A stretch of DNA of 43,416 bases from Pseudomonadota bacterium (GTDB lineage Bacteria; Desulfobacterota; WTBG01; CAIYCZ01; CAIRTM01), in assembly GCA_024640785.1 (NCBI GenBank), contig JAHEEI010000002.1, positions 1 to 43,416 on the forward strand. The letters are read 5' to 3'. Positions 6,943-39,202 of this stretch are shown here, piece after piece. The notes under the pieces are model-generated. The model saw only the letters and a list, made by a program, of their open reading frames with translations. It did no database searches and was not told the DNA's origin. How positions within the stretch are numbered: the first letter of the stretch is position 1; the number at the start of each line of letters is the position of its first letter. A program made the position numbers and the translations under genes.

Positions 6943-6982
6943 ACAGTCTATAAAAAACCAGATAGAACTACTTAAAAACAGA

Positions 6983-7807: not shown

Positions 7808-7839
7808 TTAAGACCTCCGGTATCTTTATCAATGAAAAA

Positions 7840-11772: not shown

Positions 11773-14349
11773 ATGCTGGAAAACCCCGGACAAAAGCAGA
11801 AGACTTCTGATGACTTCGAAAAACCGTCCTTAAGAGAAAAGCTTGAAAAGGACGGGACTCTCCGTGCTAGTGCAGTACTTCTTTCCGTTTTACTCTATAT
11901 TATTATTTACTTTTTAATCTATTATTATACTGGTTTGTCAATGGCAATTACCGGAATAATACCGGCTGTTACGGTTGGAGGGGTCTTTGGGCTTCTGCCT
12001 GGAATTTTTGTTGGAATTTTTGCCTTCCCGGTACTTTTTATTTCACACTTTATGCTTGAGGGTGAACTCTGGAACAGTGGTTTTACCATAGGCAGTGCTA
12101 TTTCAGGCACTGGAGCCGTAATCCTTAGCGCGGGTATTGTTGGAAGAATTCGTGACCTTGACATTCGTTTTAGAAAAAGTCTCGGAGAACGAAAACTTGC
12201 CGACGTGGTGCTTTTAGAAAATTTACAAATCCTCAGCCGACAGAAGGCAAAACTTCAGGAGATCAACAAAGGCCTTGAAAACGCCCGTGCGGAAAGAAAA
12301 AGATCTGTTTTAGTCCTTCAGGAAACAGAAAACAGGCTTGAAAAATTGATCGAAATATCTACGGACCCAATTGTTATCTGTGACAGTCAGGGAAAAGCCG
12401 AGAAGCCAAACCAGGCATTTTGTCAAATGGTTGGGTTAGCTGAAAAAGATATGATTGGTAAATCACTACATTCTTTTTCTCTCAATTCACCGGGGAAATA
12501 TCTCCTAGAATCAGGAGAAGAAATTTGCATAGATGAAGACCATTTAAATAATACCAGAAAAAAATTTGATGATTTATTTAATAAAGGCACAATGTTTAAC
12601 TGGGAAGCCTATCTTATTAATTTCAACAAAAAAATCATCTTCACCCGGAACAACGCGGTATGTCTTTATGATGAAAAAAATGAACTTACCAACATCTTTT
12701 TTGTCTTGCGTGATATAACAGAGCAGAGAAAAGCTGAGAAGGCTTTGAGAGCTTCAAAAGAGGAGGCGGAAACAGCCAACCTGTCAAAAAATTTATTCCT
12801 GACCAATATGAGCCATGAAATAAGAACCCCAATGAATGGGGTTATCGGTTTCACAGACATTCTGCTTAACAGCGGTCTTGATTCAACTCAGACAGAGTAT
12901 GCTCTTACCATCAAAAGAAGCGGGGAAGCCCTCCTTTCTCTCATTGACGATATCCTTGATTTTTCAAAAATAGAATCAGGAAAAATTTCGGTTAAGAAAA
13001 TTGATTTTGATGCTGAGCTTCTTGTTCATGATGTGTGCGAATTGATACGCCCTAAGCTTAGCGATAAAAACATAGAAATCCTTTGTCAAATTGAAGAGGA
13101 TGTGCCTTCCCAGATAAACTGCGATCCATACCGGTTCAGGCAGGTTCTGGTTAATTTAATGGGAAATGCGGCAAAGTTTACCAAAGAGGGAGAAATTGAA
13201 CTTTCTGTTGCTGTGGAAGACAAAACAGAAAACAAAATAAAACTGCACACCAGGGTTAGAGATACCGGCATCGGCATTCCAAAAGACAAAATCAACAGCA
13301 TCTTTGAAGGATTTAACCAGGCGGACAATTCAACCACAAGAAAGTATGGAGGGACAGGACTTGGACTTTCTATCAGTAAAAAAATAGCCGCTATTATGGG
13401 GGGCAATGTCTGGGCAGAAAGTGAACCTGGAAAAGGAAGTGTTTTTCATTTTACAGCATGGGTAGAAAAGGCAGTGATTAAACATAAAAAGAGACACGAA
13501 AAGAAAAATTTCAAAAACAAAAAAGTTCTTATTTATGATTCAAACAGGGCAAGCCTTAAAATTTTGAGCAAGCGTCTTAAATCCATCGAAATGGTAGTAA
13601 CAAAAACAGATCGGGCAGAAAGTGTTATAGAAGCCATTGAGTCTGATGCTAAGGCGAACAAACCCTATGATATCTGTATTCTTGATATATCAGACTCTGA
13701 TGAAACAGGCTTTGAAACTGCCCGAAAAATCCGTTCTTCCGAAAGCAGTAACATACCTATAGTTGCATTGTCTTCTTCGGTTGATATAAGCGCTAAGAGG
13801 TGTAAAGAATATGGATTTAACGGATTTCTACCAAAGCCTGTCAGCAGTAACAAGCTTTACAAAATGATTGAATGGCTTTTCTGTGAATCAGAAAAAAAAC
13901 CATTGCTAGAAGACGCTGTAAACACTGAAATCATTACCCAATACTCAATACGTGAAGACATAAAGCACTCGGTCTCAATACTTCTGGCTGAAGACAATTT
14001 GATCAATCAAAAACTTGCGGAAAAGCTTTTTACACAAGCGGGGTATATTGTTGATACCGTAAATAACGGTGAAGAAGCCGTTAACATGTTTTTATCAAAC
14101 CAGAACAAATACGATATTATATTTATGGATGTCCAGATGCCGGTGCTTAACGGACACGAGGCGACTAAAAGGCTTCGGGGAAAAGGTTTTAAGGACATCC
14201 CAATTGTTGCAGTAACCGCGAACGTAGTAAAGGGCTCCAGGGAAGAATGTCTTGAGGCGGGCATGAACGACTATATAACAAAACCCATAAAAAGAGAGAT
14301 TATTTTTCAGATAATAAATAAATGGGTAATTGAAAAGGAAACAACATAA
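11773..14349 (+). CDS. Hybrid sensor histidine kinase (TM sensor, coiled coil, PAS, HisKA, HATPase_c, degenerate REC, REC)
   Basis: H-box MSHEIRTPMNG (His348, nt 12814-12816). N/G boxes are NLMGNAAKFT and DTGIGIP...GGTGLGLSI. The C-terminal receiver has DVQMPVLNG (Asp786, nt 14128-14130) and KP. The middle receiver-like domain keeps an Asp (D638) in an atypical context (ILDISDSDETG). Confidence 0.9.
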   Translation: MLENPGQKQKTSDDFEKPSLREKLEKDGTLRASAVLLSVLLYIIIYFLIYYYTGLSMAITGIIPAVTVGGVFGLLPGIFVGIFAFPVLFISHFMLEGELWNSGFTIGSAISGTGAVILSAGIVGRIRDLDIRFRKSLGERKLADVVLLENLQILSRQKAKLQEINKGLENARAERKRSVLVLQETENRLEKLIEISTDPIVICDSQGKAEKPNQAFCQMVGLAEKDMIGKSLHSFSLNSPGKYLLESGEEICIDEDHLNNTRKKFDDLFNKGTMFNWEAYLINFNKKIIFTRNNAVCLYDEKNELTNIFFVLRDITEQRKAEKALRASKEEAETANLSKNLFLTNMSHEIRTPMNGVIGFTDILLNSGLDSTQTEYALTIKRSGEALLSLIDDILDFSKIESGKISVKKIDFDAELLVHDVCELIRPKLSDKNIEILCQIEEDVPSQINCDPYRFRQVLVNLMGNAAKFTKEGEIELSVAVEDKTENKIKLHTRVRDTGIGIPKDKINSIFEGFNQADNSTTRKYGGTGLGLSISKKIAAIMGGNVWAESEPGKGSVFHFTAWVEKAVIKHKKRHEKKNFKNKKVLIYDSNRASLKILSKRLKSIEMVVTKTDRAESVIEAIESDAKANKPYDICILDISDSDETGFETARKIRSSESSNIPIVALSSSVDISAKRCKEYGFNGFLPKPVSSNKLYKMIEWLFCESEKKPLLEDAVNTEIITQYSIREDIKHSVSILLAEDNLINQKLAEKLFTQAGYIVDTVNNGEEAVNMFLSNQNKYDIIFMDVQMPVLNGHEATKRLRGKGFKDIPIVAVTANVVKGSREECLEAGMNDYITKPIKREIIFQIINKWVIEKETT

Positions 14350-14374: not shown

Positions 14375-16942
14375 ATGACAGACAAAGAAAATAAAAAAAA
14401 TACTCCAGGAAAGATAAAAGCACCGGAAATCCATTCGCAGAAAAGTTCTGCCCGCATTAGAATGGCCTGCCTGCTTTCTGTGCTTTGTTATTTTCTGCTT
14501 TTTACTTTCTTTGCTAAAAATACAGGGTCAGGAATGGCGATAACAGTCATTCTTCCGGTTATAACTTTTTCATGGTTTTACGGTAAAAATATTGGAATAG
14601 CTGCTGGGCTTCTAAGCTTGCCGACAAACTTTATGATGGCTATAATTTTCGGCCTGCCATGGTGGGATAAAGTTTTTATGCGTGGCGCAGGCATAGTAGG
14701 AACCCTCGGTTGTGTTTCTATGGGGCTACTTGTAGGGTATCTGCGCGATTTGTCTCTAAAAGCCAGCTTCGAAATCTCGACCCGAAAACAGGCAGAAAAT
14801 AGGGTCAAAAGACATCAGAACCAGCTAAACGAACAGTCCTTTATGCTCCAGAGGAAGAACAAAAAACTTAAGGAAGAGATTTTCCAAATAGAACAGCTGG
14901 CAATAAACGCCAATAAAATAAAAGAGTATCTCGAACGATTTGTAAGCCTTTCCCCAGACCCTATTGTTATTGCAGATATAGAGGGAAACATTATAACCCC
15001 GAATAATGCTTTTCTTGATATGATTGGATGTTCTGCTGAAGAGGTTTTAGGCCGGCCTACTTATCATTTTGTAGTTAATCGCAAAGGTATTTTTGAGACT
15101 ACTTACAATGGAAAAGTTGATTTACAGGAAGATTATCTTCAAAGAACAAAAGAGGATATAAACAGATTCTTTAAAGAAGGAAAGATATCAAACCGTGAAA
15201 TTTATTTTCAGCGTAAAGACGGCAAAGTCGTTCCTGTTAACCAGAGTATTGTGATGCTTAAAGGTGAACAGGTTATGCGCTCTGCTATCTTTTCCATAAT
15301 GCAGGATTTAACAGAACAAAAAAAAGTTGAAATAGAGCTGATAGAAGCAAGACGAGCAGCCAATGATGCAAACCGTTCCAAAAGTACATTTCTGGCAAAT
15401 ATGAGCCATGAAATAAGAACACCTATGAACGGGGTAATCGGGTTCGCTGATATACTGGTGGGGACAGGTCTTAACCCTGATCAAAAAGACTATGCCTTAA
15501 CCATAAAACGAAGCGCTGAGACACTCCTTTCACTGATCAATGACATCCTTGATTTTTCTAAGATAGATGCTGGGAAAATGGAAATGGAGGAGATTGACTT
15601 TGATGTAGAATTGCTTGTCTACAATGCCTGCGAATTTATAGAGACAAGAATAGATAAAAACAGGGTGGAGCTTCTCTGCCAGATTGAGGACAATTTGCCT
15701 GCGGAAGTAATGGGTGATCCGCAAAAGTTCAGACAGGTTCTTGTAAACTTACTGGGGAATGCTGCAAAGTTTACTGAAGGGGGAAAAATAGAATTGGCAC
15801 TTAAGGTTGAAGAAGAACAGGACGAATGCATTAAACTGCATACAAGCGTTAAAGATACCGGAATAGGAATTCCTTCTGAAAAGCTTGAAAGCATTTTCAA
15901 CCTGTTCCATCAGGCAGACAACTCTCAAAACAGAAAATATGGCGGGGCAGGCCTGGGGCTTTCTATCTCCCGAAAAACAGCGGTTCTCCTGGGTGGAGAT
16001 GTCTGGGCTGAAAGCAATCCCGGAAAAGGCAGTATCTTTCATTTTACCGCATGGGTTAAAAAAACAAAAATGAAAAACGCACATAGGCTTGTGCCAGCTT
16101 CTCTTTTCGGGAAGAAAGCCTTGATCGCTGATGACAGTAAATTAAATCTTGAGATTCTCACCCATATTTTAAAATCTGCGGGCATGAATGTCTTCGTATC
16201 TTCCAGCGAAACAAACATACTTAAAACTTTAAAGGAGGCCTGCAAAAAAAAGGCTCCCGTTGATATCTGTATTTTAAATATAGTAATGCCGAGCATGAAC
16301 GGTTATGATGTGGCAAAAAAGATCCGGGCAGAACATGGTGCTTCAATTCCTCTGATTGCTTTTTCCTCTTCAATAGAAGATAGTATGGAAAAATGCCAGA
16401 ATGCAGGTTATAATGGTTTCCTGCCAAAACCGATTAACAAAATCAAGCTATACAATATGATGGGGAGGCTTCTTGGTAAGCCTGAAGACAAAGATGAACA
16501 GCAACAAAAAGTTAAAAAAGATACAAAAATAGATACACAGTATTCTATTCATGAAGTTGTTAAGCATTCAATTTCTATTCTTCTTGCTGAAGATAACGCT
16601 GTTAATCAGAAGCTGGCAACAAAACTTCTGACAAAGGAAGGTTACCGTGTTGAAATAGCAAATAACGGCAAAGAGGCTCTGGATATATACCTGAGTTCTC
16701 CAGAAAAGTATGATATAATTCTGATGGATATTCAGATGCCCGAGCTTAACGGCCTTGAGACTACAAGAATTTTAAGAAGCAAAGGTTTCGAACAAATTCC
16801 GATAATTGCCATGACAGCAAACACAATGGATGGTGACCGTAAAAAGTGTTTTGAAGTCGGGATGAACGACTATATCTCCAAGCCGATAAGAAGAGAAATA
16901 GTATTCCAGGTCTTAAAGAAATGGGTATGTGTAAAAGCTTAG
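14375..16942 (+). CDS. Hybrid sensor histidine kinase, tandem paralogue of the upstream gene
   Basis: Same architecture. H-box MSHEIRTPMNG (His345, nt 15407-15409). The C-terminal receiver has Asp785 (nt 16727-16729). The middle receiver-like domain has Asn where the phospho-acceptor Asp is expected (ILNIVMPSMNG, Asn635, nt 16277-16279). The gene starts 25 nt after the upstream stop. Confidence 0.9.
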   Translation: MTDKENKKNTPGKIKAPEIHSQKSSARIRMACLLSVLCYFLLFTFFAKNTGSGMAITVILPVITFSWFYGKNIGIAAGLLSLPTNFMMAIIFGLPWWDKVFMRGAGIVGTLGCVSMGLLVGYLRDLSLKASFEISTRKQAENRVKRHQNQLNEQSFMLQRKNKKLKEEIFQIEQLAINANKIKEYLERFVSLSPDPIVIADIEGNIITPNNAFLDMIGCSAEEVLGRPTYHFVVNRKGIFETTYNGKVDLQEDYLQRTKEDINRFFKEGKISNREIYFQRKDGKVVPVNQSIVMLKGEQVMRSAIFSIMQDLTEQKKVEIELIEARRAANDANRSKSTFLANMSHEIRTPMNGVIGFADILVGTGLNPDQKDYALTIKRSAETLLSLINDILDFSKIDAGKMEMEEIDFDVELLVYNACEFIETRIDKNRVELLCQIEDNLPAEVMGDPQKFRQVLVNLLGNAAKFTEGGKIELALKVEEEQDECIKLHTSVKDTGIGIPSEKLESIFNLFHQADNSQNRKYGGAGLGLSISRKTAVLLGGDVWAESNPGKGSIFHFTAWVKKTKMKNAHRLVPASLFGKKALIADDSKLNLEILTHILKSAGMNVFVSSSETNILKTLKEACKKKAPVDICILNIVMPSMNGYDVAKKIRAEHGASIPLIAFSSSIEDSMEKCQNAGYNGFLPKPINKIKLYNMMGRLLGKPEDKDEQQQKVKKDTKIDTQYSIHEVVKHSISILLAEDNAVNQKLATKLLTKEGYRVEIANNGKEALDIYLSSPEKYDIILMDIQMPELNGLETTRILRSKGFEQIPIIAMTANTMDGDRKKCFEVGMNDYISKPIRREIVFQVLKKWVCVKA

Positions 16943-21465: not shown

Positions 21466-23325
21466 ATGATTAGTGCTGACAACCTGACAAAAAGTTTTTC
21501 CGGCCAGAGCTTGTTTGAAGAAGCAAGCTTTAAAATCAACCCTAAAGAACGTGTGGGGCTGGTGGGAAGGAATGGACACGGCAAGACTACTCTTTTCCGG
21601 CTTATAACGGGAGAGGAAAGACCTGATTCAGGAACTATAATCATACCAAAACACTACCGCGTGGGGTATGTCAGGCAGCACCTTGACTTTACCGAAGATA
21701 CAATCTTAAAAGAAGGAATAAAAGGCCTGTCTTCAAAAGAAGAACATCACCACTGGAAAGCTGAAAAGATCCTTTCAGGACTGGGGTTCTCTCCCGCTGA
21801 CATGCAGAGACATCCTGCTGAATTTTCCGGTGGGTACCAGGTACGGTTAAACCTTGCCAAAATTCTGGTTTCAGAACCGGACATGCTGCTTCTCGATGAA
21901 CCCACAAACTATCTTGACATCACATCCATAAGGTGGATCGAACAGTTCCTGCTTTCCTGGCAACACGAACTTATGCTGATAACCCATGACAGGTCTTTCA
22001 TGGACAGAATTGTTACCCATACCCTGGGCATCCACAGAAAAAAAATAAGGAAGATTCCAGGCAACACAGAAAAATATTACGCCCAGATAGCACAGGATGA
22101 AGAAATCCATGAGAAAACAAGGGTAAATGATGAACGCAAGCAAAAGGATATTGAGCTTTTCATAAGCAGGTTCAGAGCAAAAGCAAGGCTTGCAAATATG
22201 GTACAGTCCCGGGTAAAAACCCTAGAAAAAATGGATAAAAATTTAAAACTTGAAAAGATAAAGGCTCTTGAATTTTCCTTTCAGGAAAAACCGTTCAACT
22301 CCAAATATTTGCTTAACGCAAGCAATCTCTCTTTTTCATACACTCAGGGAAACCCGCTGATTAATAATCTTGACATCAGTATTGCCAAAAGCGACAGGGT
22401 ATGCGTCATTGGAAAAAACGGAAAAGGGAAAACAACGCTTCTTAAACTGTTAGCAGGGGCCCTTACCCCTGGAAGAGGAACAATTACCTACAACCCTAAA
22501 ACTGAAAAAAGTTTTTTTGAACAGACAAATATAAAAAACCTGGTGGACACCAGAACAGTTGAAGAAGAAATTTTACATTCCCACAAACATGTTGACAGCC
22601 AGCTTGCCAGAAACATATCAGGCGCAATGATGTTTCAGGGAGACCATGCTCTAAAAAAAATAGCTGTTCTTTCCGGCGGTGAAAAAAGCAGAGTCATGCT
22701 GGGGAAAATTCTTGTAACGCCGGTCAATCTCCTGCTCCTTGATGAACCCACCAACCATCTCGACATGGAATCATGCGACGCTCTCCTTGCAGCGCTCGAC
22801 AACTTTGACGGCGCTGTTGTGATGGTCACCCATAATGAAATGTTTCTCCATGCTCTGGCCGAGAGGCTGATCATCTTCCAGAAAGACGGGATCACGGTTT
22901 TTGAAGACACTTATCAGAATTTTCTGGACAAAGTTGGCTGGGAAGAGGAAGACCTTGGGCCTAGATCAACACAGAAGCGTCCTGCAATTGAAAAATTATC
23001 AAAAAAGGAGCTTCGCAAAAAACGCTCTAAAATAATATTCGAACGCAGCACAATCTTAAAACCACTTGAAAAACGAATTAAGGTAATTGAGGAAGAAATA
23101 CAAAAAAACGAAGACACTTTAAATAGGACAACTTCAAGGATGCAGGAAGAAACTCAAAAAGGCAACGGAGAAAAAATAGCCGAACTCTCAACTATTATCC
23201 ACAAGTCACAATCTTCTATTGAGACTCTTTTTGAAGAGCTTGAAGACTTAACTGAAAAGATTGAGATTAAAAAAAGTGAACTTGACAGTAAGCTTGAAGA
23301 GCTTAATGAAATTGTAAAAAACTGA
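21466..23325 (+). CDS. ABC-F family ATPase (Uup/YheS-like, two ABC domains plus C-terminal coiled coil)
   Basis: Two Walker A sites (GRNGHGKTT, GKNGKGKTT), two signature motifs (FSGGYQ, LSGGEK), no TM domain, and a Lys/Glu-rich C-terminal coiled coil. Confidence 0.9.
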   Translation: MISADNLTKSFSGQSLFEEASFKINPKERVGLVGRNGHGKTTLFRLITGEERPDSGTIIIPKHYRVGYVRQHLDFTEDTILKEGIKGLSSKEEHHHWKAEKILSGLGFSPADMQRHPAEFSGGYQVRLNLAKILVSEPDMLLLDEPTNYLDITSIRWIEQFLLSWQHELMLITHDRSFMDRIVTHTLGIHRKKIRKIPGNTEKYYAQIAQDEEIHEKTRVNDERKQKDIELFISRFRAKARLANMVQSRVKTLEKMDKNLKLEKIKALEFSFQEKPFNSKYLLNASNLSFSYTQGNPLINNLDISIAKSDRVCVIGKNGKGKTTLLKLLAGALTPGRGTITYNPKTEKSFFEQTNIKNLVDTRTVEEEILHSHKHVDSQLARNISGAMMFQGDHALKKIAVLSGGEKSRVMLGKILVTPVNLLLLDEPTNHLDMESCDALLAALDNFDGAVVMVTHNEMFLHALAERLIIFQKDGITVFEDTYQNFLDKVGWEEEDLGPRSTQKRPAIEKLSKKELRKKRSKIIFERSTILKPLEKRIKVIEEEIQKNEDTLNRTTSRMQEETQKGNGEKIAELSTIIHKSQSSIETLFEELEDLTEKIEIKKSELDSKLEELNEIVKN

Positions 23326-25015: not shown

Positions 25016-25639
25016 TTATTCTGGTTTATTTGACGTCTCAAAACAAGGAACACAGAATTCTTTGCCGTTAAAGTTTTCCAGCTTTGTTGCCATCGTCATC
25101 TCCCCACACTTTTCACAGGCTTTTGAAGAAGCAATCTCTGCATATTCCGGCATCACAAACGCAGTCTCTTTTGTTTCAAATATATCTATAAAAGGTTTTG
25201 CCAGCAAATCCATTGATTTTAAAAATTTCTGGCGCTTTTTCTGCTCTTTGGTTGCCATTCCTGAAGCAACCGCTTGTTCCAAGACATCAAACTCTTCTTT
25301 TTCTTTTCCCAGATAACGGTAAAAACTCTTTCTGGAAAAACGGTATGCTTTATTCTGATTTCTGCTGATTACGGTATATGCATTTTTGCCGTAGTTTTTT
25401 ATAATAAGGTTTCCCTTGCCGGAGGTGGTTCCCAAAACTATTTGCAAGGCGTCAACAGAGCAGGAATCGTTTTCACAAACCGCGACAACTTCTTCATCTC
25501 CTGACCGGTTCAACTTAAGAATGCGCATGGCTTCTTTAGAAACCCGATATCCGTAAATAATACCCGGACAAAGGTGCCCATGAAAACGAATGCATTCTTT
25601 AAGGTCTTCTGGAACTTCTGTGTTATTTAAAACATCCAT
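25016..25639 (-). CDS. FmdE-family protein with C-terminal zinc ribbon
   Basis: N-terminal FHGHLCPG...G motif typical of the FmdE domain, plus a C-terminal CEKCGE...CVPC zinc-ribbon. The ATG directly abuts the yggS stop (TAAATG), and AGGAAG lies 6 nt upstream. Confidence 0.8.
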   Translation of the reverse strand: MDVLNNTEVPEDLKECIRFHGHLCPGIIYGYRVSKEAMRILKLNRSGDEEVVAVCENDSCSVDALQIVLGTTSGKGNLIIKNYGKNAYTVISRNQNKAYRFSRKSFYRYLGKEKEEFDVLEQAVASGMATKEQKKRQKFLKSMDLLAKPFIDIFETKETAFVMPEYAEIASSKACEKCGEMTMATKLENFNGKEFCVPCFETSNKPE

Positions 25640-26314: not shown

Positions 26315-26990
26315 AGTTTTTCTCAAAAAATCACAAGGAACAGTGCTGCGTCATGTAAAGAAGAGTCAAAAGGAAAGTTTCGTTCTTTGACTGAAAGACT
26401 ATACCGGCTTTACGCGCTTCTTCTGCAATCAGAAGGTTAACCACATCCCGCCTCTAAAATATTTGACGCTTCTAAAAGGTGACCTTTACTTCTAAATATA
26501 TCTCAAGGAAGAACTCTTTGTCAAGAATGACCCCTCGGAACAACCCATCAACATAACTATCTATTACAACTTTTTTTCTTATCTGCAACAGCCCGGTTTC
26601 CAGACCCGGTCTTTGCCCCGGTAATTTCCGAGAACATCTCAATATATCTGGGAAAGTTAACCAGTAGAATATTCGAACCGAACTCGCTAACGCTTGATCC
26701 TGTAAAGTGTACAAGTATCTCACGCGAGGAGGTGGTGGGGTTGATTCTTGCCGGGTATTTTTTATGTACCCCCCTTCCTGATCTATCTGCAGAAGAAGGG
26801 TTGTTTTCGGTCAGTTGTCCTGTTTTTCTTTCATTAGGAACTTAAGAAGCCTTTAAAACTTTCATCCAATAAAAACTAACCTTATCATGTTTTTTAACCA
26901 TTTATAATTACTCAAGGTTTGATCCCAAACATCAAAATCAAGATACACATTCTAAATTTGAAGTAATTTAATTTTATTAGCAAAACAGCA

Positions 26991-27821
26991 TTACTCCCGA
27001 AAAATAACGGTCCCGGCATTTTCTCCCTTAAGAGCCCGGGTAATATTACCCGGTTCCATTCCATTAATAATATAAATTTTTTCGATAACCTCACTGTTTT
27101 GCAGTATTTCCAGGCAAGGACGTTCAATAACAAGATCGTCCAGATCCTTTTCTAATAAAGCCTTTGCACCAATTTCCGAGATAAACTCAGCATCCGGATC
27201 TTTTTTAGGATCATCTGTATACAAACCCTTTTCATCTTTAATAAAAATACAGCTTCTAGCACCGGTCAGGTCAGCTAAAAGAACTGTGCCAACGTCAGTA
27301 CGATGACTTGGGATGCGGCCCCTTGCCGGGGGAATGGCAAAATAATCATAGGGTGGCATACCATGTGTAACCGGTATACAGCCCTGGGAATAGTAGTTGG
27401 GCAATTTTACAAGGTCATCGTGTGCAATTTGCACTCCTCCCCAAGGGCCGAGTAGGGTAGATACCAGCAGAGAATTCTGTTCTGAAATGGTTGTTCCAAA
27501 ACGAGCAATAATACCCGTAGGCATACCAAGTTCAAGACCTATAGAGTAAATGTGTCTACTACGGGTACCGCCTCCCGCAGTAAGAAGCATTTTATATTCT
27601 GACTTATTTTCAACAATCTCCTCAATAATTCTCGGCAGAGCCTTAGCTCCCCGGTCACATATGGATTGCCCACCGATCTTTAAGATATTAAGATCAGGAA
27701 ACATCCTCCTTTGCGGCACCAGCTGCATTTCATCTATGAGTGATTTACTGACCAGACTTTCTCCCATCAGCTTACTTTTAACATGCAAACGCTTGCCGTC
27801 TTTTTCACGTATCAATGCCAT
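26991..27821 (-). CDS. Amino-acid-kinase-fold protein resembling molybdenum storage protein subunits (MosA/MosB-like)
   Basis: Strings KIGGQS, TAGGGTRSRH, GMPPY, RTDVG, FIKDEKGLYTDDPKK and INGMEPGNITRALKGENAGTVI parallel my recollection of Azotobacter vinelandii MosB/MosA. They do not fit UMP kinase. AAGGAAG serves as the Shine-Dalgarno sequence. Confidence 0.7.
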   Translation of the reverse strand: MALIREKDGKRLHVKSKLMGESLVSKSLIDEMQLVPQRRMFPDLNILKIGGQSICDRGAKALPRIIEEIVENKSEYKMLLTAGGGTRSRHIYSIGLELGMPTGIIARFGTTISEQNSLLVSTLLGPWGGVQIAHDDLVKLPNYYSQGCIPVTHGMPPYDYFAIPPARGRIPSHRTDVGTVLLADLTGARSCIFIKDEKGLYTDDPKKDPDAEFISEIGAKALLEKDLDDLVIERPCLEILQNSEVIEKIYIINGMEPGNITRALKGENAGTVIFRE

Positions 27822-27985
27822 AAGACTTCCTTATTTAAAGACCTGTTACGGCTTCAAATATACTAATACACTTCAGCCGTCAGCCTGTGTAATGCTCAAT
27901 TAACCTTTGTTGAAAATACCGTTGTCCAAGATCCATTTCTTAATGGATATTTTAAAGGGAAAGTTACAATTTCATTGGGTCCGAG

Positions 27986-28216
27986 CTATACTTCTACATC
28001 ATCCTGACTTTTGCCCTTCTTTTTATCCACCTCAAGAAAAACAAGATCAGCACCTAATGTTTTGGCAATCTGGTCCAGCTCCTGTTTTCGAAGGTGTTTC
28101 GCATAGACCTTCATGTCAATTCCGGCAATAGCTACGAGTTTGTAACGAGGAGACTTCTTGCCCGATCCGATTTTTGTACGTTCACGATAGAAAATTTTTG
28201 CTTTTTTTGCTGGCAT
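27986..28216 (-). CDS. Small basic hypothetical protein (76 aa; 81 aa if the upstream ATG at 28231 is used)
   Basis: GGAGG lies 8 nt upstream of the ATG at 28216. The protein is Lys/Arg-rich (PAKKAKIFYRERTKIGSGKK...) with an acidic C-terminus. It lies 164 nt upstream of the MosB-like gene on the same strand. No family recognised. Confidence 0.5.
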   Translation of the reverse strand: MPAKKAKIFYRERTKIGSGKKSPRYKLVAIAGIDMKVYAKHLRKQELDQIAKTLGADLVFLEVDKKKGKSQDDVEV

Positions 28217-28675
28217 CAGGTTTCCCTCCATTAATTAGAATTAGCAGAATTTTTAAACGGAACTTCTGTTGAAAATTTAACAGCACTTTCTAAGTGTGTA
28301 TAACGATAATGCAAGATTGTCAAATATAATAAGTTTATGGTTAAAATCTTTAAATTTATTGATTTTATTTAATAATTTTGATCAGGAAGAGGGAATTTGA
28401 ATCCCCTTTCTATGATTTTTTCATAAATTTAAATCAACTAGTTACAAGATTTAAAATTATTATTTTTTCCGTCACTAATTCATTTTTTGAATTTGGAAGA
28501 AAAATATCAATTAAGTTATTATTATACCTTAACCTGTTGCTCTCCCATTCGAACAGAACTCACATAGTATCCGGACGCACCTCCATCTGCATCCGTTCCG
28601 ATAATGGGCCTGAGTCAATATGGCTAAATAAATAATCGCTCTATAACTAATATTGGTGCAACTATGTGGAGCAGG

Positions 28676-29488
28676 TCATTTTGGAATTGCTACTGCTTTA
28701 AAACCATATTCTCTAAGAATTTTTTGGCCTTTAGGAGATAAAATATACAGCGCCAGCCGCCATGCTTCTTTAGAAGCTCCATCTCTAACTAAAAGGCCAT
28801 AATCGGCCCCTACAGAAAGCTCTTCAGGTATTCTGATAATTTTAAGGGTTTGAACTTCTTTTTGAGCTAAAACAGCATTGGTGCAATAAGTCAGGAACAC
28901 GTCAGCCTTCTTTTCACTCATTACCCATCCATATGGGTTGCGTCCATCAGGGGCCTTCTCACTATTTGGCCCGCCAGTCAGTTGAAGAGCTTTATTGGAA
29001 AGCTCTGTAAAGCTCCCGTCTTTTATCGTTTCTGCATTATGAAAAAGTTCCCACGCATAGTCTCCGCTTGGATCAGCTTTTGGGGTTGATGTGCCCACTT
29101 TAATATTCTTATCCATAAGAGTATTTAGTAAATTATCTGTAGTTAAATTTACATAAGGCTGCGCCAAGGCGCAAAGCTGATTACGGGCAAACAGAACAAC
29201 TGGACTTCCCCAACCTCCCGATACGAGTTTTTCGGGGTGTGCCATATTTGCAGAAGCAAAAACATCTGGCTTTTCACCTTGTTCAATTGCTTTTCTTAAA
29301 AGGCCACTTGGTCCGAACTTTGTAGTTACTTTTGTTTTATAGGCCTTTTCATAGGAAGCTACTGCATCTCCTAGCGCTGTTTTCAAGCTTCCTGCTGCAT
29401 AGAGCGTTAAAGAATCAGCTGATGCAGATAAAGGAATTAAAAAACAAACAAGAGTAACTAAGGCTGCTATATTTTGATATCTTCTCAT
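28676..29488 (-). CDS. modA: Periplasmic molybdate/tungstate-binding protein, ModA-like
   Basis: Signal peptide (MRRYQNIAALVTLVCFLIPLSASA), then LTLYAAGSLKTALGDAV...FGPSG.L...I.QG...DVFASAN, which is typical of ModA. GGAG lies 6 nt upstream of the ATG at 29488 (the longest ORF reaches 29500). A Moco-like riboswitch precedes the gene. Confidence 0.75.
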   Translation of the reverse strand: MRRYQNIAALVTLVCFLIPLSASADSLTLYAAGSLKTALGDAVASYEKAYKTKVTTKFGPSGLLRKAIEQGEKPDVFASANMAHPEKLVSGGWGSPVVLFARNQLCALAQPYVNLTTDNLLNTLMDKNIKVGTSTPKADPSGDYAWELFHNAETIKDGSFTELSNKALQLTGGPNSEKAPDGRNPYGWVMSEKKADVFLTYCTNAVLAQKEVQTLKIIRIPEELSVGADYGLLVRDGASKEAWRLALYILSPKGQKILREYGFKAVAIPK

Positions 29489-29617
29489 AATAGTCTCCAT
29501 TTTATTTTAGACACAACTTATATATTGGATGGATCTTGTTTTTAAATGTATGTTAATATTGCCAAGCAAAGCTAGTACAATATTTATAACCTTTTAATAA
29601 TCCGTATTTAATTTCAT

Positions 29618-29653
29618 AAAAAAGCCAGTTCCCGTGTTTAGATAGGAACCGGC
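29618..29653 (-). terminator. Intrinsic terminator (expression platform of riboswitch copy A)
   Basis: Minus-strand RNA: GCCGGUUCC - 12-nt loop - GGAACUGGC (9 bp including one G-U), followed by UUUUUU. Confidence 0.65.
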
Positions 29654-29670
29654 CTCTTTGCTAGCAATTT

Positions 29671-29768
29671 TCTCCTTTTCAAATACGGGAGGCATGACCC
29701 TTTCGTTTCAAACCCTTAGGCCTTACGTCATAGGTTTTTCACCCTTAGACAAATAAGGCTCGGAGACA
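29671..29768 (-). promoter_or_regulatory. Moco/Tuco-riboswitch-like aptamer, copy A
   Basis: Minus-strand RNA: GUCUCCGAGCCUUAUUUGUCUAAGGGUGAAAAACCUAUGACGUAAGGCCUAAGGGUUUGAAACGAAAGGGUCAUGCCUCCCGUAUUUGAAAAGGAGA. It carries the CUCCGAGCC and GCCUCCC strings I associate with the Moco RNA motif. It has a closing stem UCUCC/GGAGA, an inner GGGU/ACCU hairpin and a UAUGAC/GUCAUG stem. It sits upstream of a Mo/W binding protein. Confidence 0.6.
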
Positions 29769-29825
29769 ATATTTAATTTTAAGTTATGTTTATAATTTTT
29801 TTTTACCTGCCTTGTATCCAATCCT

Positions 29826-31130
29826 TTAGAATTTAAAGATAAGATCAAGGGCCACATCGGTCTTATCATCTTCCGGACCGCGCACACTGTCCGTTATCCA
29901 GGTGGTTGCCGCAAACACTATCTGTGGATGAAACTTGTACTGGAGTGAAAACTTACTTCCACGACGGTTTGCCCCGCCAAAATTTGCATCAGCAAAATAA
30001 CCCACAACAGCATCGGGCTCTATCCGTGCATACTTGTACCCAAAGGCCCAGTCACCCTTTTCTTTAATCTTGCCGATTGAAAACCCAAGAGCATATGCAT
30101 AGTCGTTATCGTCACTGTCAGTATTTTTGGCGTAATCACCGTAAAGCTGAACCGGGATTCCGCAAAGCTTTGTATCCCAGAAGGAGGTTACATCAAAAAC
30201 CTTAAATCCGCCTTCGCCGCTGTTACCTTTATTTTTACTGCTTTTCCACTCAGTAAGAGTGTCCCAGTCTATGTTAGAAAAATCATAAAGCGTTGCTGCC
30301 AGAGTCCACTGGCTTTTTGCAAGATCCCAGGTATACCCCGTCTGATATCCATAAAGAGCGGCGTCATCAGACTCGGGGCTATAGCCTTCGTCATTGTTAT
30401 TGTTCTCGTCAATAACGAACTGTGCAAGGGTAATAAAGGGTTTGAATGTATCCGTCAGGTTAAAGACATATTTTTCATAAACGCCTTCGGGATTAAGATC
30501 AGCGTCCCAGACAATGTCCGTATGAACAAACGGATTCGGGACCTTTCCGCCTGCAAGCTCCAGACCTTTAAGCCAGTTGGGCCTGTAAAGTGCATAAGCA
30601 CGGTCGATCCAGATATCTTTTTCTGAAAAGGAATCATTAAAGGACTGATTTGTCGAAGTGCCAACGTTGCTATCTCCGGTGGCCAGACGCAGGACCACAT
30701 CCAGCTCATCACAGAGCTTCTTTGCAAAATTAAGCCTCAGCCTGAACCTGCCCCGGTGTTGGTCAGCCTTGTTGGTTCTGTTTACGATAGCTTCATATCT
30801 CAACCGGAAATCACCGCCGAACTTAATTCCCTTTAACCATTCGGGAACGGGCATGGTTTCTTCATTCACAAGCTCTGCCACAATACTCTTTATCTGCTCA
30901 CGATTCGCCGGCGAAACAACGTCAGCCGTCGGAGTTGCTGCCGAAGCCTTGTTCTGCAGGCTGTCAATGACCCGGTTCTGCTCTTGTATTTGCTTCTGCT
31001 GCTCTTGAATCATCTTCTCCATTTCAGCAAATTTTTTCATCAGTTCCGCATCTGACATAGAAAATCCCGGTCCACTGCAGACCAGAACATAGGAAAGTGC
31101 AAATATCATGATTTGTATACCTTTTTTCAC
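29826..31130 (-). CDS. Outer-membrane porin-like beta-barrel protein with N-terminal coiled coil
   Basis: GTG start 6 nt after GAGGAG. Signal peptide, then a Gln/Glu-rich coiled-coil segment (MKKFAEMEKMIQEQQKQIQEQNRVIDSLQ). Alternating aromatic/polar beta-strand patterns follow, and the C-terminus ends in Phe (...LDLIFKF). The gene starts 59 nt downstream of the tupA-like stop. Confidence 0.65.
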   Translation of the reverse strand: MKKGIQIMIFALSYVLVCSGPGFSMSDAELMKKFAEMEKMIQEQQKQIQEQNRVIDSLQNKASAATPTADVVSPANREQIKSIVAELVNEETMPVPEWLKGIKFGGDFRLRYEAIVNRTNKADQHRGRFRLRLNFAKKLCDELDVVLRLATGDSNVGTSTNQSFNDSFSEKDIWIDRAYALYRPNWLKGLELAGGKVPNPFVHTDIVWDADLNPEGVYEKYVFNLTDTFKPFITLAQFVIDENNNNDEGYSPESDDAALYGYQTGYTWDLAKSQWTLAATLYDFSNIDWDTLTEWKSSKNKGNSGEGGFKVFDVTSFWDTKLCGIPVQLYGDYAKNTDSDDNDYAYALGFSIGKIKEKGDWAFGYKYARIEPDAVVGYFADANFGGANRRGSKFSLQYKFHPQIVFAATTWITDSVRGPEDDKTDVALDLIFKF

Positions 31131-31189
31131 TCTGCTCTCCTCTTCTTATTAATGGTTTATATTATATTTTAAATTATATATTTAAATGC

Positions 31190-32002
31190 CTATTTAATAG
31201 ACATCGGAACAAATAGCGGCTGGTTGAATTTTTCCTTGCCGAACTCACGGATTATTTCCTGTCCCTGAATTGAGGTGATCCACCCGATAAGAGCCATTGC
31301 ATGAATATACTTTACATGGGCATGTTTTGCAGGATTAACCGCGATTATACCATATGGATTATACAGCTCCGGATCACCCTCACACAAGACCGGAAGGCTT
31401 ATCTTCTTTGAAAAAGCCAGAAAAGTGCCCCGGTCTGCCAGGGTGTAGGCTTTTTTTTCATCTGCAATCGTTAAGACCAAGCCCATGCCCTGACCCGCCT
31501 CCTGGTACCACTGGCCTTTGGCGGATATACCCGCTTTTTCCCAGATCCTTTTCTCTTTTTTATGGGTCCCTGAATCATCTCCCCGTGAAATAAAAGGCGC
31601 CTTGGCTTCGGCAATCTTTTTAAATGCCAGGGCGGCATCTTTCATACCTTTTATCCCTGCAGGATCATCTTCAGGCCCGACAATCACAAAGTCGTTATAC
31701 ATGACATCTCTGCGGTTAACTCCAAACCCTGCGTCTACAAATTTGTCTTCTGCCTCTCTGGCATGGACAAAAACAATATCCACATCACCGTTTTCACCAA
31801 GTTTTAATGCTTTGCCCGTTCCCACAGCAATAACATCAACTTTTATATCAAACATTTTTTCAAATGGCGGAATAAGGGCCTCCAGAAGACCTGAATTGTC
31901 CGTGCTGGTGGTTGTCGACATCTTCAGTCTCTGTTCAGCATTTAAAATTCCTGAACAAAAAACAAGGATCAAAACAGTAAATGTTAATGCTTTCTTCTTC
32001 AT
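31190..32002 (-). CDS. tupA: Periplasmic tungstate-binding protein, TupA-like
   Basis: Signal peptide, then the MSTTTSTDNSGLLEALIPPFEK and VFVHA...MYNDFVIVGP..DPAGI patterns typical of TupA-type binding proteins. GGAGGAG lies 5 nt upstream of the ATG. Confidence 0.75.
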   Translation of the reverse strand: MKKKALTFTVLILVFCSGILNAEQRLKMSTTTSTDNSGLLEALIPPFEKMFDIKVDVIAVGTGKALKLGENGDVDIVFVHAREAEDKFVDAGFGVNRRDVMYNDFVIVGPEDDPAGIKGMKDAALAFKKIAEAKAPFISRGDDSGTHKKEKRIWEKAGISAKGQWYQEAGQGMGLVLTIADEKKAYTLADRGTFLAFSKKISLPVLCEGDPELYNPYGIIAVNPAKHAHVKYIHAMALIGWITSIQGQEIIREFGKEKFNQPLFVPMSIK

Positions 32003-32157
32003 ACTCTCTCCTCCATATAGGTTATTATGTTTTCATGTAAAAATTTTTTTAAAATAGTCTGCCAGTTAAAACGTGCGATTTTAAAAATGATGCCCATTGT
32101 GCATTACAGAAGGTTAAAATCCTCTAGTCCTCGCCCTTTGGATCTTTTTAAAAGCTT

Positions 32158-32200
32158 AAAAAAACAAAAAAACCGGTACCCAAAGCAAAGGATACCGGTT
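32158..32200 (-). terminator. Intrinsic terminator (expression platform of riboswitch copy B)
   Basis: Minus-strand RNA: AACCGGUAUCC - UUUGCUUU - GGGUACCGGUU (11 bp including one G-U), followed by UUUUUGUUUUUUU. Confidence 0.7.
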
Positions 32201-32218
32201 ATAAAATATTCCAGTCTT

Positions 32219-32318
32219 TTTCCCTTGTCCGAATACGGGAGATATGATCTTTTCAAATCATACCCTTACGGCCACTTCTCATAGCCTTTAAAGGCCTTAG
32301 ATACACGGCTTTAGGAAA
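32219..32318 (-). promoter_or_regulatory. Moco/Tuco-riboswitch-like aptamer, copy B (divergent core)
   Basis: Minus-strand RNA: UUUCCUAAAGCCGUGUAUCUAAGGCCUUUAAAGGCUAUGAGAAGUGGCCGUAAGGGUAUGAUUUGAAAAGAUCAUAUCUCCCGUAUUCGGACAAGGGAAA. It has the same order of elements as copy A (AGCC, UCUAAGG, hairpin, UAUGA, GGCC, UAAGGGU, CUCCCGUAUU). Base pairs are compensatory in the closing stem (UUUCC/GGAAA against UCUCC/GGAGA) and in the first hairpin (GGCC/GGCU against GGGU/ACCU). Confidence 0.5.
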
Positions 32319-32338
32319 TTATTTTGTATGTAATGAAA

Positions 32339-32367
32339 ACAATATATATACAAAGCGCTTTTGTCAA
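32339..32367 (-). promoter_or_regulatory. Putative sigma70 promoter driving riboswitch B and the tupA-like operon
   Basis: The minus strand has TTGACA (32367-32362), a 17-nt spacer, then TATTGT inside a TATATATATT run. It ends about 20 nt upstream of the aptamer. Confidence 0.4.
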
Positions 32368-37300: not shown

Positions 37301-39202
37301 TTAGTCAAGCCCCAGTTTTTTCAGGGTTTCTTTTTCGGGCAGGCCGGTCTCAAGATTCCAGCCTCGCAGCGCATAATATTCATCCATCATCTTTTCAAAC
37401 GCTTTTTTATCAACAGCCTTTCCTTTTCTGGAGGTTACTTCCGCACCCTTGCCTGGAAGAAAAAGCTCGGGATTATACATGCCAAAAACATCCGCAATCA
37501 TCTCTTCACGTTCAATAAACATAAAATCCGGCAACACATCACTTTTGCGGCCTTTTCTTCCTTCACGAACAAGGATCAGCCTGTTCAGGGTAAACAGACG
37601 GTTTCCAGTAAGATCATACTCCTCCTCACCAAATACCTTCCCCGTAACTGCGGAAAATATCTGGGCCTCTAAGGTCGGGTCGCCCACATGGTCTGCACTG
37701 TCGGCAACATCATAAACAGGCCAGGCAAAATCACACAAATTTAAAGACTCCTTCAAATACTGCCTGTTTTGAACCTTAAACGCTGCAAGGGCCTTGCCTT
37801 CATAAGTTGAAAAATCAACTGCATGCTCACTGCCCCAGAATGCTTTAGCAATATTTTTCAAGACCTCTGTGGATACATAGCTCTTTTCACCCTTGGACAG
37901 ATACCACAGAGCCCACTTGGTCAGAGGTTCGCATATTTCATGCAGTTCGGTAATAAAAGGCCTTGGCTCTGTGGCATAAATAACCGCGGACATGGTGAAC
38001 ACCTTGGGCCCGTAGGCAATTGCACGTCCGCTTTCTGTAAGCATGTTAGCTGTAATGCTTGCTGACTTCTCGCCAAAGATTTTTGATGCGCGAAGCACTC
38101 CCTGAGAAAGAATTTCCCCAAAACCATCCCTGATGCAAATTTTCTTAAGCACTTCCTCCAGGAAATCCCTGCTCCCCATCTGTGAAAAGTCTAAACCCGT
38201 TTCTTTTTGATTAATTATTCCCTGCTGTACGCACTGATCAACCCACATCAGCAGAAAGACCATATCTAGAGCACACACCCCAAAATCATTTGCCAGCATT
38301 GGAGCGTCAAAGCTTGCCTCAGTGAATTTGCCGTGCAGTTTTTTATCCCACATCATGTAAAAATTTCCAATTTGGCATTTCCGGATATCCTCTGTTCCGA
38401 CAGGACTTCTGTGTAGAGACCGCCAGCATCCTTGGGGACAGCCACTGCAGTGAACCCGTTTCACCACTTCAGAACCGGGAAGTATAATCGGGTTATTAAA
38501 GAGATGAAAATAACCCTTACCCATCATTGCTTTAAGCCGGGTCCTGATAGCTTTTATTTTCTCATCATCAGCTGCAACAACCTTTCCTGTTCCATGCACT
38601 GTAATCGCTTTTAATTTTTTTGATCCCATAATCGCGCCAAACCCCATAGATGCGGTACTGCCTTCATCAGAAAATAAAATCGCAAAACGGATCAGACCTT
38701 CTCCGGCTGGCCCAATAGACAGAATACTGTGTTTATTGCTGGTTTCACCGTGAAGGAGCTCACGGGTTTTAAAGTTACCCAGACCCCACAAATGCCTGGC
38801 ATCTCTTATTTCCACATTCTCGTTCTCAATGCTTAAATAAACAGGATTTTCTGCCCGGCCTTTAATAATTATACCGTCATATCCAGACTTTTTAAGGACC
38901 ACCGCAATATGACCACCCATATTGGCACTTACAAAGGTTTCAGGATAGACACAGGGTGATTTTCCACAGGCCAGCAGCCTGGGAGCGGATGGGGCTTTGG
39001 TTCCAGCCAAAGGTCCTGTCATTAATATCAGGGGGTTCTCAGGGTCTAATGCGTCAGCCTTCCCCGAAGCCATATCCCAGTACAGTTTTTGCCCAATTCC
39101 AAGCCCGCCAATATAGGTATCTGAGTAGTCTTTGGTATCCAGAAACTCAATATTACCCGAAGTAAGGTCAACTGAGATTATCTTTCCTGCCCAACCAAGC
39201 AT
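37301..39202 (-). CDS. Aldehyde:ferredoxin oxidoreductase-family enzyme (tungsten/molybdopterin-dependent)
   Basis: N-terminal GWAGKIISVDLTSG, the AOR family [4Fe-4S] motif CSGCPQGC, and a length of 633 aa. AAGGAG lies 7 nt upstream of the ATG. Confidence 0.88.
   Translation of the reverse strand: MLGWAGKIISVDLTSGNIEFLDTKDYSDTYIGGLGIGQKLYWDMASGKADALDPENPLILMTGPLAGTKAPSAPRLLACGKSPCVYPETFVSANMGGHIAVVLKKSGYDGIIIKGRAENPVYLSIENENVEIRDARHLWGLGNFKTRELLHGETSNKHSILSIGPAGEGLIRFAILFSDEGSTASMGFGAIMGSKKLKAITVHGTGKVVAADDEKIKAIRTRLKAMMGKGYFHLFNNPIILPGSEVVKRVHCSGCPQGCWRSLHRSPVGTEDIRKCQIGNFYMMWDKKLHGKFTEASFDAPMLANDFGVCALDMVFLLMWVDQCVQQGIINQKETGLDFSQMGSRDFLEEVLKKICIRDGFGEILSQGVLRASKIFGEKSASITANMLTESGRAIAYGPKVFTMSAVIYATEPRPFITELHEICEPLTKWALWYLSKGEKSYVSTEVLKNIAKAFWGSEHAVDFSTYEGKALAAFKVQNRQYLKESLNLCDFAWPVYDVADSADHVGDPTLEAQIFSAVTGKVFGEEEYDLTGNRLFTLNRLILVREGRKGRKSDVLPDFMFIEREEMIADVFGMYNPELFLPGKGAEVTSRKGKAVDKKAFEKMMDEYYALRGWNLETGLPEKETLKKLGLD

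Follow-up and report, generated by a model that had tools for sequence, protein, structure and literature searches.

The locus described here is part of contig JAHEEI010000002.1 of a Pseudomonadota bacterium (assembly GCA_024640785.1), of which positions 1 to 43,416 (the window) have been analysed, and it carries the genes of two periplasmic binding proteins for tungstate or molybdate, the gene of an outer-membrane porin, and two riboswitches. Read 5' to 3' on the minus strand, the order is a promoter-like site, riboswitch B with its terminator, tupA, a gap of 59 nt, a Porin_5 gene, a spacer of 48 nt, riboswitch A with its terminator, and a modA-like gene. This gene order had been put forward in an earlier reading of the DNA letters (the sequence-only reading) and it is correct, the family searches, folds, and scans placing each element where that reading had it or a few bases away. 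The locus had also been taken as a single module, whereas it is found to be composite, being a conserved riboswitch–tupA–porin unit followed by a lineage-specific insertion of 3.04 kb. The parts are identified by family, the tupA–porin pair is conserved in related loci, the modA-like part has been inserted, and no transporter genes are present in the 43 kb. Coordinates of the elements of the locus refer to the minus strand unless noted otherwise, and the loci used for comparison are denoted by L and a number.

Both leaders are genuine riboswitches of the molybdenum/tungsten cofactor (Moco/Tuco) family with terminators, as is seen from the folds and from the scores against the Rfam family RF01055 (gathering score 36 bits), and their description as riboswitch-like is borne out. 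The aptamer of riboswitch B (32206..32328) scores 60.9 bits (E 2.4e-12) and that of riboswitch A (29656..29777) 77.9 bits (E 2.5e-17); both matches span model positions 1-135, and they are the only Rfam matches in the window. In riboswitches A and B, as well as in the copies of three related loci (L001, L085, and L086), the P3 helix is missing, model positions ~61-75 being replaced by 1-2 nt. The P1/P2/P4/P5 architecture and the GAAA tetraloop are kept, as shown by an RNAalifold consensus of the five sequences with 31 pairs, 4 of which have compensatory changes, and the single-sequence fold of riboswitch A reproduces the aptamer. The expression platforms of both leaders are of the terminator type. 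The terminator of riboswitch B (32161..32200) has an 11-bp stem with 6 GC pairs (32200..32171), followed by the U tract TTTTTGTTTT, and its 3' strand is able to pair instead with the 5' strand of P2. In the minimum-free-energy fold, the terminator of riboswitch A (29612..29659) is a 16-bp hairpin (29659..29618) followed by UUUUUU. Just 5' of riboswitch B, a consensus scan predicts a sigma-70-like promoter site, TTGACA-17-TATTGT (32339..32367, 10/12 matches).

An almost perfect correlation has been found between P3-less representatives of this riboswitch family and metabolism of the tungsten cofactor (Regulski et al. 2008, PMC2408646), and, given the missing P3, the ligand here is probably the tungsten form of the pterin cofactor. 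As both riboswitches are P3-less, the locus is better read as tungsten-oriented; this adjusts the notion of a "Mo/W capture" module in the sequence-only reading, of which the assignment to oxyanion families is confirmed.

The tupA-like gene (31190..32002) encodes a protein of 270 residues with a signal peptide, which is a tupA-like periplasmic tungstate-binding protein (PBP_like_2, 165 bits). When compared with solved structures, it matches the TupA proteins of G. sulfurreducens (3lr1, E 1e-94) and D. alaskensis (5my5, E 5.5e-65). The oxyanion-binding residues named in the study of D. alaskensis TupA, being TTTS, His59, Arg118, Thr124, and Asp170 (PMC5517513), are all kept in the alignment to 3lr1, in which the motifs STTTST, VFVHA, SRGDDSGTH, and LADRGT are aligned. 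The score against the NCBIfam equivalog NF041772 is 245.7 bits, below its cut-off of 400 bits. By its sequence the protein belongs to the tungstate-binding family, with tungstate as its likely ligand.

The porin gene (29826..31130) starts exactly 59 nt 3' of tupA, with no terminator between them. It encodes an outer-membrane porin of 434 residues with a signal peptide, an N-terminal coiled-coil helix, and a 16-strand barrel, which scores 171 bits against PF16930 (Porin_5), where the cut-off is 22 bits. The AlphaFold2 model, calculated from 27 homologues, has a pLDDT of 79 and shows the signal peptide, a long N-terminal helix, and the 16-strand barrel. Comparison of this model with known structures by Foldseek finds trimeric porins at a probability of 1.00, with OmpM1 (E 9e-16) first and then MOMP, OmpF/OmpC, and OprB, so that what had been called a porin-like β-barrel is a real barrel of 16 strands. 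A structure like that of OprP, which had been expected, was dropped as an assignment because OmpM1, MOMP, OmpF/C, and OprB rank first. The residues that are invariant in the family, Arg109, Arg111, Arg126, Arg128, Arg130, Arg132, and Lys171, are at alternating positions on the first two strands, so that these side chains would line the lumen. Among the genes found 5' of 72 distant Porin_5 members are those of a histidine kinase (17/72), PhoU (6/72), and a Na/sulfate-type anion symporter (5/72), which fits an anion-directed family.

The modA-like gene (28676..29488) encodes a periplasmic molybdate/tungstate-binding protein. Its open reading frame (ORF) opens at 29500, and the likely start is the ATG at 29488, which is behind a GGAG and gives a protein of 270 residues, as in its homologues. 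The scores are above the family cut-offs for NF002917 (382 bits, cut-off 264), TIGR01256 (78 bits, cut-off 62.5), and PF13531 (SBP_bac_11; 155 bits, cut-off 25), and the similarity to solved ModA structures is weak (7tav, E 1e-13). Both binding proteins belong to families of tungstate/molybdate binders, and not to solute-binding families for other ligands, an outcome that the sequence-only reading had named as speaking against it.

Neither an ATP-binding cassette (ABC) permease nor an importer ATPase is encoded in the 43,416 bases, as judged from Pfam searches of all ORFs of at least 100 residues and from a screen for Walker/LSGGQ motifs and transmembrane segments. The sole ABC protein of the window is of the ABC-F type (21466-23325). 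The earlier statement that neither binding protein is followed by permease and ATPase genes holds within the window.

Conservation of the tupA–porin pair

The riboswitch–tupA–porin arrangement is present at the same syntenic site in L001, L085, and L086, in each case with a P3-less Moco riboswitch 5' of tupA and without permease or ATPase genes. These loci also have the closest homologues of the porin, with sequence identities of 76% (L001-L003), 72% (L086), and 69% (L085), and their gene order is that of the window, with genes for UDP-glucose dehydrogenase, an RF-1-like protein, and a PilZ protein, the riboswitch, tupA, the porin gene, and genes for PNP_UDP_1, YggS, FmdE, and ABC-F proteins. 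The tupA gene is directly 5' of the porin gene, with gaps of 35-76 nt, in the window, L001-L003, L085, L086, and L087. In L087, the porin is 47% and TupA 74% identical to the window proteins, and the surroundings differ; the tupA–porin pair is nevertheless kept. Genes for tupB, tupC, modB, or modC are found neither in the flanks (at most 10 kb) of L001 and L085 nor on the short contigs of L086 and L087.

As a control, GTDB representative genomes were scanned with the porin alignment, and in the 80 loci with distant porins (29-41% identity) no homologue of tupA, modA, or mosB occurs within 10 kb. Also in L133 (47% identity, with 508 nt of 5' sequence) and L089 (43-44%) no tupA is present upstream of the porin gene, and in L132 and L088 the porin start is too close to the contig end for an upstream gene to show. 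From these 80 loci, together with L089 and L133, it follows that the link with tupA is a property of one porin subclade and not of the whole Porin_5 family.

Outer-membrane protein genes of other families are found next to related binding-protein genes. In L091, a Porin_O_P gene (within 6669-8813) ends 43 nt before a modA-like gene on the same strand, which is followed by aminotransferase and xanthine-dehydrogenase-family genes. In L123 (1447-10786), the genes are those of TupA, a TonB-dependent receptor, a solute-binding protein, a di-haem oxidoreductase, and a modA-like protein, and two convergent Porin_O_P genes flank the modA-like gene. The cases are few; since three different outer-membrane families adjoin orphan genes of tungstate/molybdate-binding proteins, this argues that the association seen in the window is functional.

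Full-text literature searches turned up neither a tup or mod operon with a porin gene nor a porin gene preceded by a Moco riboswitch, which agrees with the remark in the sequence-only reading that an outer-membrane channel made together with an oxyanion binder under cofactor-sensing control is not a textbook arrangement. The new part, which appears undescribed, is the porin partnership; tup and mod genes are already known to be controlled by riboswitches, and orphan binding proteins, tandem Moco RNAs, and the molybdenum storage protein (MoSto) are likewise known.

The inserted modA-like block

That the gene order and both leaders might be conserved in related genomes had been suggested as a check, and the outcome differs for the two halves of the locus: the riboswitch–tupA–porin part is kept in the relatives, and riboswitch A and the modA-like gene are absent there, having been inserted in the window. 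The inserted block (29770..26727, 3,044 bases) comprises riboswitch A, which is its first element, with its terminator, the modA-like gene, a spacer of 444 nt, orf81, and a mosB-like gene, the last of which lies beyond position 28676, where the stretch considered in the sequence-only reading ended. As shown by blastn and by the alignment of the junctions, the homology with the relatives covers the porin gene and the 48-nt spacer and ends at ~29771, leaving just 3-4 nt to the start of P1 in riboswitch A. The next homologous stretch is 26726..26570, the first 157 nt of the PNP_UDP_1 gene of the relatives, and the one after that begins at 26424 (YggS). The 26570..26726 segment is the 5' portion of a truncated PNP_UDP_1 remnant (26468-26726 overall) and forms the right-hand scar of the insertion, being 82% identical (blastn) to L001 11437-11593 and L085 4556-4711, both of which fall inside intact PNP_UDP_1 (nucleoside phosphorylase family) genes. 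The riboswitch A–modA–orf81–mosB block has been inserted, truncating PNP_UDP_1. The alternative, in which the block is ancestral and has been lost from the relatives, is ruled out by this gene being truncated in the window and intact in L001 and L085. A misassembly, which had been named as an outcome that would undo the sequence-only reading, is also ruled out, by the synteny on both flanks and by an independent assembly (L004) that has the same porin-to-riboswitch-A junction and is 99.94% identical over window positions 31189..29558, spanning it.

The mosB-like gene (26991..27821) is homologous to the genes of MoSto from A. vinelandii, here as a single gene, and its product has the AA_kinase fold. 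It matches the β-subunit of MoSto (2ogx_B, E 8.8e-61) over nearly its full length, residues 16-273 being aligned with residues 10-267, and it matches the α-subunit (MosA) with E 6e-42. A gene for a second (α) subunit is not detected by tblastn, there being one mos-like gene in the window and one each in L101 and L114. Preceding it is orf81 (27986..28231), which encodes a small conserved protein without Pfam or NCBIfam match that travels with the mosB-like gene; its homologues in L101 and L114 (50-55% identity by tblastn, the protein having 76-81 residues) are also beside a mosB-like gene. In these two unrelated metagenomic contigs, the trio of modA-like, mosB-like, and orf81 genes recurs, so the inserted block is a recurrent gene set and not a random fragment. 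The mosB-like and orf81 pair accompanying the modA-like gene is at 4470-5745 in L101 and at 9346-10704 in L114, and a PadR regulator gene adjoins each. One experimental study of MoSto states that it has no known homologues (PMC6448029); a single-gene homologue in an anaerobe contrasts with this statement.

The spacer between the modA-like gene and orf81 (28232..28675, 444 nt, ~29% GC) is non-coding, with no convincing ORF and no Rfam match at gathering score. It has promoter-like sites at 28510..28482 and 28354..28326, and orf81 and the mosB-like gene may be expressed separately, from a promoter of their own.

The modA-like gene itself appears to depend on the unit into which the block has been inserted. 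The 48 nt separating the porin stop from riboswitch A (29778..29825) have neither a predicted terminator nor a predicted minus-strand promoter, and the same is true between riboswitch A and the modA-like gene; the scan accepts no -35/-10 pair on the minus strand from 29500 to 31130, in agreement with the earlier observation that no convincing terminator or strong promoter separates the porin from this leader. With the insertion edge only 3-4 nt before P1, the block has come without a promoter before its riboswitch. In L085 and L086, the homologous spacer runs without a terminator into a downstream co-directional ORF; in L001, there is a terminator at this place. The insertion without its own promoter, the porin gene without a terminator, and the continuation of the L085 and L086 spacer into an ORF make it likeliest that the modA-like gene would be transcribed by read-through from the tupA promoter, with two riboswitches in series. 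Of the proposal of serial riboswitch control, the read-through is plausible and the series is probably functional, but it is not a designed arrangement: as riboswitch A has arrived by a lineage-specific insertion, the series is an evolutionary accident. Serial Moco RNAs with separate terminators have been discussed as a means to sharpen the response (PMC2408646).

The ORF that follows the porin gene in the relatives is at 3879-4382 in L085 (167 residues) and at 2815-2994 in L086, where it is cut by the contig end, and there is no terminator between it and the porin gene. The L085 ORF product has only faint matches, of the CarboxypepD_reg/SdrD_B type. It may be a third gene of the tupA–porin operon, replaced in the window by the modA block.

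The modA-like protein belongs to a subfamily with thousands of homologues of 74-82% identity, mostly of 270 residues, and its gene contexts were surveyed in 41 loci. It is solitary in L092 and L093, next to tupA in L094, L095, L105, L127, and L128, and inside tupA–tupB–tupC operons in L096-L098, L119, and L120, with the permease and ATPase confirmed by Pfam in L096 and L119. The tupABC context in other loci suggests that its ligand is tungstate or molybdate, and the simplest reading of the sequence data is that the Tup transporter would use it as a binding protein besides TupA. As its relatives are in tupABC operons, an unlinked TupBC is the likeliest partner, and the two binding proteins of the window could share it. 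Systems split in this way are known, for example modA1, which is separate from modB1C1 in G. bemidjiensis (PMC2996986). A chrB-a RNA motif (RF03078, 62.5 bits) is present at 3747-3835 of L129, ~3 kb 5' of a modA-like homologue (56% identity), on a contig of 145 kb.

Proposed function and alternative explanations

The overall reading that we prefer, and consider rather probable, is that two tungstate/molybdate acquisition units are arranged head to tail on the minus strand, unit 1 being riboswitch–tupA–porin and unit 2 being inserted, with the ABC transporter unlinked. Unit 1, which would be ancestral in the lineage, has the promoter, the P3-less riboswitch with its terminator, tupA, and the Porin_5 porin gene. 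When the cofactor is plentiful, the aptamer would fold and the terminator would halt transcription; when it is scarce, the high-affinity periplasmic tungstate binder would be made together with the outer-membrane channel. The channel would admit the oxyanion and the TupA-like binder would trap it, following the same logic as OprP and PstS in phosphate starvation. In unit 2, a P3-less riboswitch and terminator precede the modA-like gene, after which orf81 and the single-subunit MoSto-like gene probably have their own promoter. The modA-like gene would be reached by read-through from unit 1, passing two cofactor checkpoints, each requiring anti-termination, which would give it a steeper response than that of tupA and the porin gene. 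The inner-membrane step would be carried out by an ABC permease and ATPase encoded elsewhere, probably one TupBC for both binders. As a more tentative proposal, the Porin_5 subclade would be a dedicated tungstate/molybdate channel of the outer membrane, paired with TupA and expressed only at cofactor scarcity; the gene context points to such a selectivity.

Several observations weigh against this reading. The link between P3-less riboswitches and the tungsten cofactor is a correlation, not biochemistry. The tupA–porin pair of L087 has no detectable riboswitch (searched to E up to 1), so the pairing is wider than riboswitch control, and none of 22 other loci scanned has a riboswitch at gathering score before the modA-like gene. 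After the terminator of riboswitch B and ahead of the start of tupA, there is a weak promoter-like site, TTTAAA-18-CATAAT (9/12, 32024..32053), which, if active, could give basal expression that bypasses the switch. An unrecognised promoter in the 3' end of the porin gene could drive riboswitch A independently. As regards the porin, its best Foldseek matches are general porins (OmpM1, MOMP, and OmpF), the 50 top matches listed do not include OprP, and a selectivity for tungstate or molybdate is putative. Subclade-specific pore residues were considered as a clue to selectivity and dropped: 32 positions set the TupA-linked porins apart from the rest of the alignment, with charge shifts in both directions (E/D339S and D383N, yet R425D) and no clear charge logic. 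Finally, no tupBC or modBC genes are found in the window or in the flanks of the relatives (at most 10 kb), and the unlinked TupBC is a putative component.

This last point bears on the sequence-only reading, in which a dedicated outer-membrane/periplasmic capture stage was suggested. If this stage is transporter-free, the porin and the two binders would concentrate or buffer tungstate and molybdate in the periplasm without a dedicated ABC importer, and either uptake would be by a non-ABC carrier or the proteins would serve purely as a periplasmic reservoir or selectivity filter. The absence of permease and ATPase genes is true for the window and extends to the surroundings of the cassette in four relatives; a large number of the modA-like homologues are orphans, as in L092 and L093, and the nearby inner-membrane carrier in L101 is an MFS_MOT1 molybdate transporter, not an ABC protein. 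The window TupA, however, keeps all residues of the ABC-coupled TupA proteins and is closely similar (E 1e-94) to the operon-encoded TupA of G. sulfurreducens, in several loci a member of the modA-like subfamily is in one operon with tupB and tupC, so that an unlinked TupBC is indicated, and split ABC systems such as that of G. bemidjiensis (PMC2996986) are common. A transporter-free capture stage is considered quite improbable. It is also rather unlikely that the porin is a general or phosphate-type anion porin that is downstream of tupA by chance, the linkage having no meaning for oxyanion uptake. The fold being closest to general porins agrees with such a chance linkage, as do the 80 distant family members without tupA or modA nearby, often beside PhoU or kinase genes, and the lack of an upstream tupA in L133 and L089 at 47% and 43-44% identity. 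Yet the tupA–porin adjacency with its short gaps survives the divergence of the porin to 47% and a variety of downstream contexts, a housekeeping porin behind a cofactor-repressed terminator would be off whenever the cofactor is plentiful, and Porin_O_P and TonB-dependent receptor genes adjoin orphan modA-like or tupA genes elsewhere.

The third alternative concerns only the transcription of the two units, which would be independent if riboswitch A and the modA-like gene had a promoter of their own in the porin 3' end or in the spacer, for example at TAAAAT (29781..29776), in which case there would be no serial gating. This hexamer, 5-10 nt before the aptamer, resembles a -10 element well, weak promoters are frequent in AT-rich DNA, and the number of sites given by the promoter scan is matched by its expected background. 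Set against this are the failure of any -35/-10 pair to pass the scan from 29500 to 31130, the absence of a terminator after the porin gene, the homologous L085/L086 spacer, which is an intra-operon spacer, and the insertion edge, so close to P1 that no promoter was carried in. Independent transcription is a real possibility, though a somewhat doubtful one, and the preferred reading retains the read-through from unit 1.

Outer-membrane passage of tungstate and molybdate is usually left to "general porins", and a tupA–porin operon under a cofactor riboswitch provides a concrete candidate for a channel specific to these oxyanions, as well as a clue to the function of the Porin_5 family, which is uncharacterised. 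In the literature searched, IcmP, which partners the secreted ModA of P. aeruginosa, is the sole dedicated outer-membrane partner described for tungstate or molybdate. If the proposal of a dedicated channel is true, the porin would be the first outer-membrane component assigned to tungstate/molybdate oxyanion uptake, and together with the modA-like protein and the homomeric MoSto-like protein it would form a cofactor-gated "admit, trap and store" tungsten island in an anaerobe; the Porin_O_P and TonB-dependent receptor neighbourhoods would then make outer-membrane uptake of these oxyanions a general, overlooked step. The inserted unit would provide a naturally occurring example of two riboswitches acting one after the other along an operon. 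Current models would be extended by this, not overturned.

Related systems and neighbouring genes

The Pseudomonas porins OprP and OprO and the PstS binder are co-induced at phosphate scarcity and regulated by PhoBR. The proposed arrangement is similar in that an anion-directed porin would be co-induced with a high-affinity binder, and several distant Porin_5 genes are beside phoU. It differs in that the porin is of the Porin_5 and not of the Porin_O_P family, in that control is by a cofactor riboswitch instead of PhoBR, in that the two genes form one operon, and in that the likely substrate is WO4/MoO4.

The closest described relatives of the regulation are the Moco/Tuco-controlled tupABC and modABC operons (PMC2408646), with which the locus shares the RNA family, the terminator platform, and the position 5' of a tungstate/molybdate-binding protein gene, as well as the P3-less variant and a host that has genes for tungsten enzymes; that study also describes Moco RNAs in tandem, each with its own terminator. 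In contrast to those operons, the permease and ATPase genes are missing here, and the porin gene takes the place of tupBC after tupA, a porin not being mentioned in that study. Unlike in the tandem RNAs, the second riboswitch is between genes, after two ORFs, and has arrived by insertion.

A riboswitch that gates an outer-membrane uptake protein and a periplasmic binder, with the ABC parts elsewhere, is known from Caldithrix abyssi, where a B12 riboswitch controls btuB-btuF, and btuC and btuD are at other loci (PMC5317091); the ABC parts of the present system would likewise be encoded elsewhere. The difference is that BtuB is an energised TonB-dependent transporter, whereas the porin is of the diffusion type, and the ligand and the riboswitch class are also different. 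The storage protein resembles A. vinelandii MoSto (2ogx) in its near full-length alignment with MosB and MosA and in the uptake context of molybdenum and tungsten. It differs from the α/β pair in being encoded by one gene, in an anaerobic Desulfobacterales bacterium and not in an aerobic diazotroph, and is known here from its sequence; it is accompanied by the conserved protein of 76-81 residues and, in the other loci, also by the PadR regulator. An outer-membrane partner dedicated to a molybdate-binding protein has a precedent in a passage of PMC11734730, citing work according to which P. aeruginosa ModA is secreted by the type VI secretion system and docks on the outer-membrane protein IcmP from outside. 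Compared with what is described in that passage, the binders of the window each carry an ordinary signal peptide, and a porin takes the part of the outer-membrane partner.

The TypA protein encoded in the window reaches no more than about 75% identity to named sequences, and these come almost without exception from Desulfobacterales, such as Desulfonema, Desulfobacula, and metagenome-assembled Desulfobacteraceae genomes; the window is therefore assigned to an uncultivated, sulfate-reducer-type lineage of the Desulfobacterales. Further genes of the window include that of an aldehyde:ferredoxin oxidoreductase (AFOR_N/AFOR_C, a tungstoenzyme family) at 37301-39202 (minus strand), 5 kb from the locus, before which no riboswitch is found; its presence agrees with a tungsten cofactor as the ligand of the riboswitches. 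The adjoining genes at 11773-14349 and 14375-16942, both on the plus strand, encode hybrid histidine kinases of 858 and 855 residues with the same set of PAS, HisKA, HATPase_c, and receiver domains, suggesting a tandem duplication. Near the genes of tungstate/molybdate-binding proteins, FmdE-like proteins with a zinc finger at the C-terminus are encoded in the window (25016-25639, minus strand), in L092 (2253-2864), and in L101 (1524-3158). The L101 protein is a fusion of FmdE with a MoCF_biosynth (molybdopterin-binding) domain, encoded immediately 5' of the modA-like gene, and this hints at a role of FmdE in the handling of the tungsten/molybdenum cofactor.

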